Below, in pieces: positions 58,001 through 61,000 of a stretch of DNA of 64,000 nt. This stretch comes from Octopus sinensis (Eukaryota). The notes under the pieces are model-generated. The model searched no databases, was not told where the DNA came from, and saw nothing but the letters and a program-made list of their open reading frames with translations. The translations under genes were made by a program, and so were the position numbers. Each line of letters begins with the position of its first letter. Position 1 is the stretch's first letter. The stretch covers positions 85,250,001 to 85,314,000 of the forward strand of contig NC_043000.1 of the NCBI RefSeq assembly GCF_006345805.1, read 5' to 3'.

Positions 58001-61000
58001 TTGTTCTCTCTCTTACTTTCCCTTTCTTACTTCTCTCTGGTTATACTTCCATTTCAATATTTAGTGGAAAGAGTGTCTTTGTTGTTTTTTTGTGTTTTTT
58101 TAAGACACATATATGAAACATAAATCCAAATCTATAGAATGCTATCTCCGATAATTCTACAAAAAAAAATTGATAAATATTTTGGTAAAATCATTGCAAT
58201 TAGTTTTATTAAGAATATCATCGCATCCTTAACATCATTTCATTCTGAAATCTATTGTCTTTTGTTCCATCATTTTGTTCTTTTCTTTTTCTTCTCATTA
58301 TTCCATCTTTTTCTTTGCCATTTTCATGACCTTCAGATATATGGAGTTGGAACTTAACTGAGAATATTTATAAATCTGTCTGTTTGATTTCTAAACACTT
58401 GTTCTTGTATTTGCTTATAGCATTGAGATGAGTCTCCATGCTATAAACAAACTAGCCAGCAAAATCTACTAGTTAATTCTAATTAATCTGTACTACTGAC
58501 AGATGTTCTAAGGAAAGGCATGAATAATAAAAGTTCTCAATAACTTCTCTTCTTGTATAAATCTGAGAACTTGCACCTAATTGTGAAAAGAAACCAAACA
58601 AAGTTGTATCACTTCTAACTGTAGAGAAGTATTGAACTTTTTACTAATATTTTTATATAAGTGTCAGTAGAAGAAGCAAGAGTTTGGGGGACTTCCTCTA
58701 CTACTGGTGATTTAGCTTAAGTTATTTGCAAATTCTCAGTAAACAAAAGAAGTTTTTGGAAATTTCAAATTCTGTGAAAAAAACTTCTTCCTTTCTTTCA
58801 TCACCCAGTCATTTTGTCATCAGTACCATCTGACCTTGGTCATCTGCCACATGTTCATTTTAATCACCTAATGAATCACCTGCCAGATTCTAGTTAATTA
58901 TTTTTTAAGTAAATATATCTAGCAGATATCGGGGACCTATCTCGGCACGCCGCAGGCAAGAAAAAAGGTAAGCCGAACTGCGTTGACAAGGCTTGCTACA
59001 ATACCTTTTACCCCACAATCTAACTTCATCCTTTGTGTTTGATATTTATTGTTGAAAAAAAAAGTTTTTTCTTGTTACATGAATGTTTTTCATTTTTTCG
59101 TGTGAAAAAGAAAATATCTTTTTTAAAATGTACCTTGTTAAATGCTTGAAAGAATTGAGAAAAACAATTGCTTTGACTTTTTAAAAACCTGTTGCACTTT
59201 TGAATTATTTAGTTAACCCAACTCTTAACATTTGTCTCTCCAAATATTGATTTCTAATATTTTTTTGTTCGTTTTTAATACTATTTGGCATTATTTTTAA
59301 TGTTATTCCTTATATTTTTGGTTTGATATAAAAAAAAACATACAAATGAGTAACTATTTTGGTATTTTGTAGAATGATGAGCTAATAGTAGAGCACCAAA
59401 TTAAATTCCTTAGTTAAGTTACATCCATTAGAAACTGATAAAATAATTACCTCATAGTATCCTACCATGCCCTTCCCCAACAAAAATTATGAAAAACTGA
59501 TTTTCTGGTAGTTGTAGCTAGAGACCCAGCAACATTATATTTTTTTCCTGAGTAACAACTTAATTCTTCAAATAGAAAGTAGGATGAAAAAAACTAACAT
59601 CCATTAGCAGTACTTCCTCTTTTTCCATCATATGGCTTCAGAATAAACCAATTCAACTTTTCAACCAAAAACAAAAAAAAAATGAATTCTCACCTACATT
59701 TTATAGCATCTATATAATATTCTTGCACATTCTTGTTTGTTGCTCTTTTAAATGTGTGAGCATATGTATATATAAAGAGAAAGAGAGAGGTGTATATCAT
59801 TATCATTGTTTTATCTACTTCCCATGCTGGTATCTGTTGGGAGGGTCACCAAGGCAATAGTCAGCACATATTAAGAAGTACTAATTTAAGCAGATTGTAG
59901 AACTTCAACTTGCGCATGTTTCATTCATATGCACATACAGGTGTGTGTGTGTGTATAGGCAATAAGAAAATGGAGGGGATCAAGAACTTTCTAAACTCTC
60001 TGATGAAGCCCAGAGGCACACCCAAGTACCTTAATCTTATCGACCAAATACTTCAGTTCACTGAAGGGATGGAAGTAAAGTGGGGTACTATGACCTCTTG
60101 GCTGAAACAGCTGTAAGAAACTATTCTACTTTCTATGTTCTACATTATATATTTTAATAATTACTGGTATTTTTATATATGTAAAGCATAATGTGTTATA
60201 CATGTATGCATATTGTTATATTTGTTTTTTTTTAAAAATAGACATAATATAATGTCTAAAAGTTGATGAATACCACCTCTTGATCCCCTCCATTTTCTTA
60301 TTGCTGTATAAATTAAGAGTAAAACAACTTTTTACCCTCACCCATTTATTACATTCAGTAGTGTAATTGCCATGCAATGAAAAAACACTTGTGTATTAGT
60401 AATTGGGTAGTCTACCAGCAGTATATTGGATATTATCCCTTAGTTGGTTGGATTCACAACCTCTAACTCTCTTGGAACTATATATATTCTGAGACCCCCT
60501 TCGGTCACGACACTGACCATGGGATTGCACCTAGAAAGTTACCCTCCCAGGCACAAGTCCAGCCAAAGTTGTTTATGGAAGACTAGCAGTCACCCATGCA
60601 TACCGGCCTCCCCTCTCCATGCCACCAGTGTTATCCTAGGGAAAGGCAAAGGCCAATACAGCTTGGCACCTGCGACATTGCAACTCATTTCTACAGCTGA
60701 GTGAACTGGAACAATGTGAAATAAAGTGTCTTGCTCAAGAACACAACACGCAGCCTAGTCCAGGATTTGAGCTCACAACCTCACGATCATAAGCTCGACA
60801 CTCTAACCACTGAGCAATGCGCCTTCACTATATATATATATATATATATATATATACTCTTTTACTTGTTTCAGTCATTTGACCGCGGGCATGCTGGAGC
60901 ACCGCCTTTAATCGAGCAAATATATATATATATATATATATATATATATATATGAGAGAGAGAAAGTGGGGTACGTGTGATGTGAGTGTGTCTTAGAAAT

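Follow-up and report, generated by a model that had tools for sequence, protein, structure and literature searches.

The cadherin CadN of Drosophila is known for its mutually exclusive exons. In ApoER2 (LRP8), human exon 6B (7B in mouse) is a cassette that adds 13 amino acids in frame to the ectodomain of this neural receptor and brings in a convertase site of the form RXXR. In vitro, cleavage of the resulting protein yields an ectodomain that is soluble and acts as a dominant negative, and an RNA-binding repressor, possibly Rbfox2, is described as limiting the inclusion of the exon (PMC7410921). The type III classical cadherins are defined by EC repeats followed by the order NC-CE1-LG1-CE2-LG2-CE3, a membrane helix and a catenin-binding tail (PMC5473995). 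For DN-cadherin, removal of the prodomain at a predicted furin site has been described, and the halves of DE- and DN-cadherin that result from cutting at the NC site can stay bound to each other (PMC8325961). Binding sites of Nova/Pasilla upstream of an exon occupy the silencing position of the respective RNA map (PMC3165201), and the 168 protocadherins have been the main subject of work on octopus adhesion (PMC10084454).

In the present study, we analysed a window of 64,000 nucleotides from Octopus sinensis (NC_043000.1, positions 85,250,001 to 85,314,000) with regard to a small candidate exon in a cadherin gene. By analogy, this exon resembles ApoER2 exon 6B in being a short in-frame ectodomain cassette with a putative convertase site. 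In contrast to exon 6B, its host is an unrelated protein, the insert lacks RXXR and separates Cys4 from Cys5 within an EGF module, and the candidate regulator is of the Nova type. The octopus cadherin shares an N-terminal convertase site and the NC region with DN-cadherin (PMC8325961); however, the known cuts in type III cadherins are those at the prodomain and at NC, whereas a splice-inserted basic site in CE3 is found in none of the 87 other segments compared here. With exons silenced by Nova/Pasilla the candidate would share a group of YCAY motifs close to the branch point and the acceptor (PMC3165201). Short in-frame inserts in LamG and EGF regions are shared with the neurexins and teneurins, but in teneurins the insert is placed between two EGF repeats and in the octopus cadherin it interrupts one (PMC10084454, PMC9058538).

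The sequence of the insert is already present in GenBank; new is its interpretation as an exon that is alternatively spliced and accompanied by a Nova-type cluster. A literature search by titles and the beginnings of abstracts, with most subscription papers outside its reach, returned no prior description of this exon. The main text of a paper on octopus microexons does not contain the word cadherin; its supplements may list the exon.

The host gene

Exon-by-exon mapping over 32 introns identified the gene in the window as that of the O. sinensis type III classical cadherin XP_029635711.1 (putative neural-cadherin 2), a record reached via a search seeded with the Argonauta orthologue. In the region used for the domain analysis (the window and 20 kb on each side, 104 kb), the Pfam matches follow each other in the order Cadherin, Ig_Shg (NC), EGF, two Laminin_G, EGF and calcium-binding EGF, a membrane helix and the PF01049 tail, i.e. 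EC repeats and then NC-CE1-LG1-CE2-LG2-CE3, as in other type III cadherins. The catenin-binding tail (PF01049, E 1.7e-25) is encoded by the last exon, 8 kb beyond the window (L002:7978-8232). A genome search with this exon returned only the exon itself (one match among four candidates scored, a lower bound), which suggests that O. sinensis has a single classical cadherin gene. The numbers 23 and 24, which the sequence-only reading had assigned to the exons next to the host intron, are right if counted within the window. A PDB search with exon 24 returned generic calcium-binding EGF relatives only. The coordinates of the relevant features are given in Table 1.

Table 1. Position of the cassette exon, its splice signals and the neighbouring parts of the host gene within the window
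Feature	Position	Strand	Remarks
Coding exons of XP_029635711.1 (24)	645..62876	+	Gene extends past both window ends
Upstream constitutive exon	56455..56641	+	End of LamG2 and EGF Cys1-Cys4; residues 2696-2758 of XP_029635711.1
Host intron	56642..62637	+	Phase 2; 5996 nt; longest of the 32 mapped introns
YCAY motifs, Nova/Pasilla-type (10)	58798..58879	+	Upstream of the acceptor; putative silencer
AAG acceptor giving a stop	58907..58909	+	Score 0.6, above 1 of 32 real acceptors; unsupported
Cassette exon, 45-nt form	58923..58967	+	TAG acceptor 58920-58922; adds 15 residues; translation equals the insert of QHX41535.1
Cassette exon, 42-nt form	58926..58967	+	CAG acceptor of the NAGNAG; one Arg fewer; predicted only, no record seen
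Donor AAG/GTAAGC	58965..58973	+	Score 10.7, above 30 of 32 constitutive donors; no listed difference in three contigs
Downstream constitutive exon	62638..62876	+	Cys5-Cys6, calcium-binding EGF, start of the membrane helix

Near residue 673, encoded by an exon about 16.7 kb before the window, XP_029635711.1 has one residue fewer than all four other Octopus records covering this site; the difference sits at an acceptor, and an alternative acceptor or a model error is possible. Broken reading frames are present in introns at 21180-21520 and 27470-27830 on the minus strand and at 36940-37940 on the plus strand, which we take to be remnants of mariner-type transposases. Those at L002:5570-7050 in the last intron presumably represent the reverse transcriptase end of a LINE. 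Upstream of the insert, the EGF module contains at 56598-56618 the arrangement C2-X4-T-C3, the O-fucose consensus.

Splice signals and composition of the cassette exon

The sequence-only reading had proposed a cassette microexon of 42 nt, or 45 nt with the preceding TAG, with a TAGCAG acceptor and a strong AG/GTAAGC donor in a phase-2 intron. These elements are all present: the acceptor lies at 58920-58925 and the AAG/GTAAGC donor boundary at 58967/58968, both forms have AG/GT borders, a length divisible by three and no stop codon, and their translations are as given before. Scored with a matrix built on the 32 introns of the gene itself, the donor turned out to be as strong as claimed (Table 1), and the two acceptors reached 4.5 (CAG, above 4 of 32) and 3.0 (TAG, above 3 of 32). 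Only three donors of this strength exist in 84,051 intron bases, and there the candidate, in its 42- and 45-nt forms, is alone in reaching both its donor and its acceptor scores. With a looser donor cut-off, four other frame-keeping pseudo-exons appear, one of them with a higher summed score, and the splice signals alone are therefore not a proof. A 33-nt frame-keeping pseudo-exon at 57471-57503 in the same host intron has a summed score of 17.4, which is above that of the cassette, and occurs in no record.

The candidate had further been described as an isolated GC/CpG island. It is rich in GC (55% in the 42-mer, with four CpG, vs 33% in the intron, which has 49 CpG in 5996 nt) but not isolated: seven clusters within the intron equal it in GC and three in CpG count, so that its composition alone is a weak argument. 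It does not match a dispersed repeat either. The exon stretch is unique in the 2.72-Gb genome, both in a DNA search and with a 26-nt pattern allowing up to two mismatches, and it falls outside the eight repeat-covered parts of the host intron. Therefore, we reject an origin from a transposon, apart from an old one that may have decayed. Use of the AAG acceptor, for which a truncated isoform had been envisaged, would indeed read into a TAG stop. However, this acceptor is weaker than 31 of the 32 real ones and the truncated isoform is present in no record, so we reject it as well.

The RNA of 58780-59040 has no remarkable predicted fold (z -0.19). Neural microexons have a length of about 3-27 nt, or up to 51 nt in a wider definition, and the 45 nt found here fit only the latter. 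Microexons of the Srrm/eMIC type are characterized by a UGC close to the acceptor; this locus lacks it, the nearest TGC being located at 58881, about 40 nt upstream.

Protein records and distribution among species

The inclusion of the exon is on record in QHX41535.1, a neural-cadherin from O. vulgaris in GenBank (3004 aa) that contains all 15 residues of the insert, identical and exactly at the junction. Since this insert equals the translation of the 45-nt form, the recorded acceptor is the upstream TAG and the exon starts at 58923. The proposal of a cassette exon that splits the C-x-C of the EGF module thus stood, but not its 42-nt boundary. Five of the seven members of the XP_029635711.1 cluster cover the junction, and apart from QHX41535.1 they skip the insert; these four are gene models, namely the O. 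sinensis RefSeq, the O. bimaculoides RefSeq and the O. vulgaris genome model, and a MetaClust entry. None of the seven cluster members is a RefSeq isoform with the insert. Inclusion and skipping are both on record at the level of protein records.

Among 2972 positions compared, 11 differ; at eight of them QHX41535.1 has the residue of the O. vulgaris genome models, at two that of O. sinensis and at one that of neither, which makes it independent of the O. sinensis genome. No contig is linked to this record, and it covers in one piece a protein that the O. vulgaris genome models divide into two, from which we infer that it was derived from a transcript. One could still argue that no such exon exists in vivo and that chance signals coincide with a prediction or assembly artefact in QHX41535.1, or that the truncated AAG form is the real one. 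Our literature searches found no source paper for the record, and the read contigs described below are unspliced in all three runs that gave any. However, both borders of the insert coincide precisely with AG and GT and it is in frame, the properties of the record point to a transcript, the splice signals are unusual and the AAG acceptor is very weak. Either alternative is thus extremely improbable in our view, and with one inclusion record at hand we are confident that the cassette exon is real and spliced in.

With regard to other species, 140 proteins were examined, of which 89 distinct segments remained after a score filter and de-duplication and 88 reached Cys4. In 87 of these 88, a single residue (C4-x-C5) separates the two cysteines, and only QHX41535.1 has more. 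The insert is absent from the Argonauta orthologue and from a protein with 54% identity, with the caveat that gene models would miss a minor exon. A search with exon 23 alone among proteins of up to 2000 aa gave no match, and a search for shorter proteins around the insert gave five matches among 303 candidates, of which only the one from Argonauta is orthologous and lacks the insert. The conservation in cephalopod orthologues that had been suggested as a check was accordingly not found beyond Octopus at the protein level.

The position of the intron appears to be old, since many homologue fragments read from genomes end at this junction. The RefSeq isoforms X2 of the abalones Haliotis cracherodii and H. 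asinina stop a few residues after Cys4 at the same junction, with different tails, and are predicted to lack the membrane helix. The N-cadherins of Mytilus, Ostrea and Lineus show isoform differences of 5-12 residues in EC repeats or near NC, one of which, seven residues long, is common to three Mytilus species. In contrast to the octopus insert, these are neither located in CE3 nor polybasic.

Sequence variation around the exon

Three of four sequencing runs yielded one unspliced contig each over 58800-59040, without joints or loose ends, and the fourth (X12) yielded nothing; none of the runs is on record as RNA, and such contigs cannot show an absence of splicing. In the T run at 58900-58906 all three contigs have one base fewer than the assembly, possibly due to an assembly error or an allele near 58901.

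In the related species termed organism B, 3 of 45 exon bases differ, and all of them change an amino acid (R>Q, I>L, K>R). A further amino-acid change, S>L, occurs in run X3 at a depth of 3. The contig of organism B has two listed differences in the flanks plus two unplaced bases, and keeps the splice sites and the frame. At most 4 of 196 flanking bases differ, vs roughly 5% expected from an estimate based on word shares (P 0.02-0.04, a rough value). The exon has no fewer changes than its flanks, and the difference between both is not significant (Fisher P 0.12). The paired basic residues of the insert are kept in organism B (K>R). Overall, the splice signals look kept, and the peptide appears to be only loosely constrained except for its basic end.

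These data bear on the possibility that the exon is real but young, included at a low level and of little or no function, so that a tolerated in-frame insert drifts near-neutrally. All three differences in organism B and the one in run X3 change the peptide, the insert is missing in four of five Octopus records, in Argonauta and in all other homologues, and the AlphaFold model described below tolerates it. On the other hand, O. vulgaris and O. sinensis share the same 15 residues, organism B has retained frame and splice sites with flanks more conserved than the intron average, four CpG persist in an intron that has 49 of them in 5996 nt, and it was the form with insert that was picked for a full-length deposit. 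Moreover, two of the four changes in the exon are CpG transitions, and 86 of 118 possible single changes that give no stop are non-synonymous anyway. We consider near-neutral drift possible but rather unlikely.

Putative control by Nova-type proteins

Stretches as dense in YCAY as the one upstream of the cassette acceptor occur three times on the plus strand and not at all on the minus strand of the 104 kb. The 32 constitutive acceptors have between zero and six such motifs, and 130 of 5000 dinucleotide shuffles (2.6%) reach ten, a modest excess for a cluster that was spotted post hoc. One of the two other dense stretches, with 10-11 YCAY that are in part due to a local tandem duplication, is located at L002:4738-4840 in the last intron, about 4.7 kb past the window, with no exon candidate beside it; the other, at 2538-2650, lies within a C/T-rich low-complexity part of an intron. 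The Rbfox motifs TGCATG and GCATG are absent from 58680-59250. Nova control of the cassette exon is about as probable as not.

Predicted effects of the insert on the protein

We modelled the LamG2-EGF-EGF part with AlphaFold on 50-row alignments. The mean pLDDT is 92.6 with the insert and 94.6 without it, and the pTM 0.74 and 0.85, respectively. The insert has no secondary structure and a pLDDT below 50 at residues 230-235, and it is thus predicted to form an exposed, unstructured loop. The disulfides of EGF modules pair 1-3, 2-4 and 5-6. The gap between Cys4 and Cys5, in which the insert is placed, is therefore the sole point between cysteines that no EGF disulfide spans. It is nevertheless conceivable that the insert misfolds the module and that the longer isoform is retained or degraded, so that splicing would lower the amount of cadherin at the surface. 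The spacing of one residue in 87 of 88 homologues might be read in this way, but both EGF parts are modelled with confidence by AlphaFold, which cannot judge folding efficiency, and we regard misfolding as very improbable.

The sequence-only reading had seen in the insert a convertase-like basic site. The insert fits the general proprotein-convertase motif (K/R)-Xn-(K/R) with n = 0, 1, 2, 4 or 6 (PMC3545927), as RR, KR and R-X4-R are present. A canonical furin site, R-X-K/R-R or R-X-X-R (PMC6682551), has to be rejected, however, since no Arg of the insert has an Arg at P4 and neither motif is matched, and the earlier claim holds only for the looser motif. Elsewhere the ectodomain has three matches to R-X-K/R-R and five to R-X-X-R. 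The insert provides its only R-X-X-X-K/R-R, and in furin sites an Arg at P6 can replace the one at P4. A dibasic pair as such is common, given 14 KR/RR pairs in the ectodomain. The P1' residue would be a disulfide-bound Cys, which would hinder cleavage. At residues 399-402, where DN-cadherin loses its prodomain, the octopus protein has RRRR, and the O. sinensis genome has ten matches to the convertase P-domain, four of them with an internal stop. Cutting need not mean shedding either, because halves cut at NC can stay bound, as mentioned above for DE- and DN-cadherin.

The exon might also be regulated while its product remains uncut, with the insert serving as a basic patch for heparan sulfate or a different acidic partner and as a hinge that makes the geometry of LamG2-EGF and of EGF and membrane looser. 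XBBBXXBX is a heparin-binding pattern with three matches in the ectodomain, and the insert matches it. The insert gives rise to the most basic 15-mer of the ectodomain and, together with the following KGYKK, to its most basic stretch. In addition, the pTM is lower with the insert, the basic residues are kept while others drift, and small inserts are described as tuning binding in neurexins and teneurins (PMC10084454, PMC9058538). However, the pattern is a common one, here it includes an acidic residue, and organism B has lost an Arg through one of its changes. This possibility is unlikely in our opinion.

Proposed mechanism and implications

Our preferred, though tentative, reading is that of a Nova-repressed 45-nt cassette that gives rise to a convertase-cut, sheddable cadherin isoform. 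The combination of a weak acceptor, a strong donor and upstream YCAY motifs would make skipping the default where Nova is present. If included, the exon would place an exposed loop of basic character in the Cys4-Cys5 gap of the membrane-proximal EGF module, and a convertase might cut there, either at KR, with Arg at P6, or at RRR. Considering the pairing of the disulfides, a cut between Cys4 and Cys5 would leave no covalent link. About 235 residues, including the catenin-binding tail, would remain as a stub, and the adhesive ectodomain would be loosened. That convertase cleavage and release of the ectodomain are the main effect of the exon is likewise a tentative assumption, with the balance somewhat against it.

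Since the tail search finds only this gene, isoforms may be a means to diversify classical-cadherin adhesion in the octopus. One could imagine that a lone classical cadherin serves all adherens junctions and synapses, and that a lineage-specific, Nova-gated 45-nt exon puts a convertase site at the unbridged point of the juxtamembrane EGF module. Splicing would then decide whether the protein is a receptor for adhesion or gives a shed ectodomain and a catenin-binding membrane stub, and abalones would obtain a comparable soluble form because their transcript stops within this ancient intron; as a whole, this picture is distinctly unlikely. If the exon is near-neutral, it would merely be an unannotated isoform. 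If the preferred reading is true, the exon would be an example of an EGF module opened at Cys4/Cys5, and a splice-controlled switch of shedding or charge would provide a testable handle on how adhesion is tuned between tissues.
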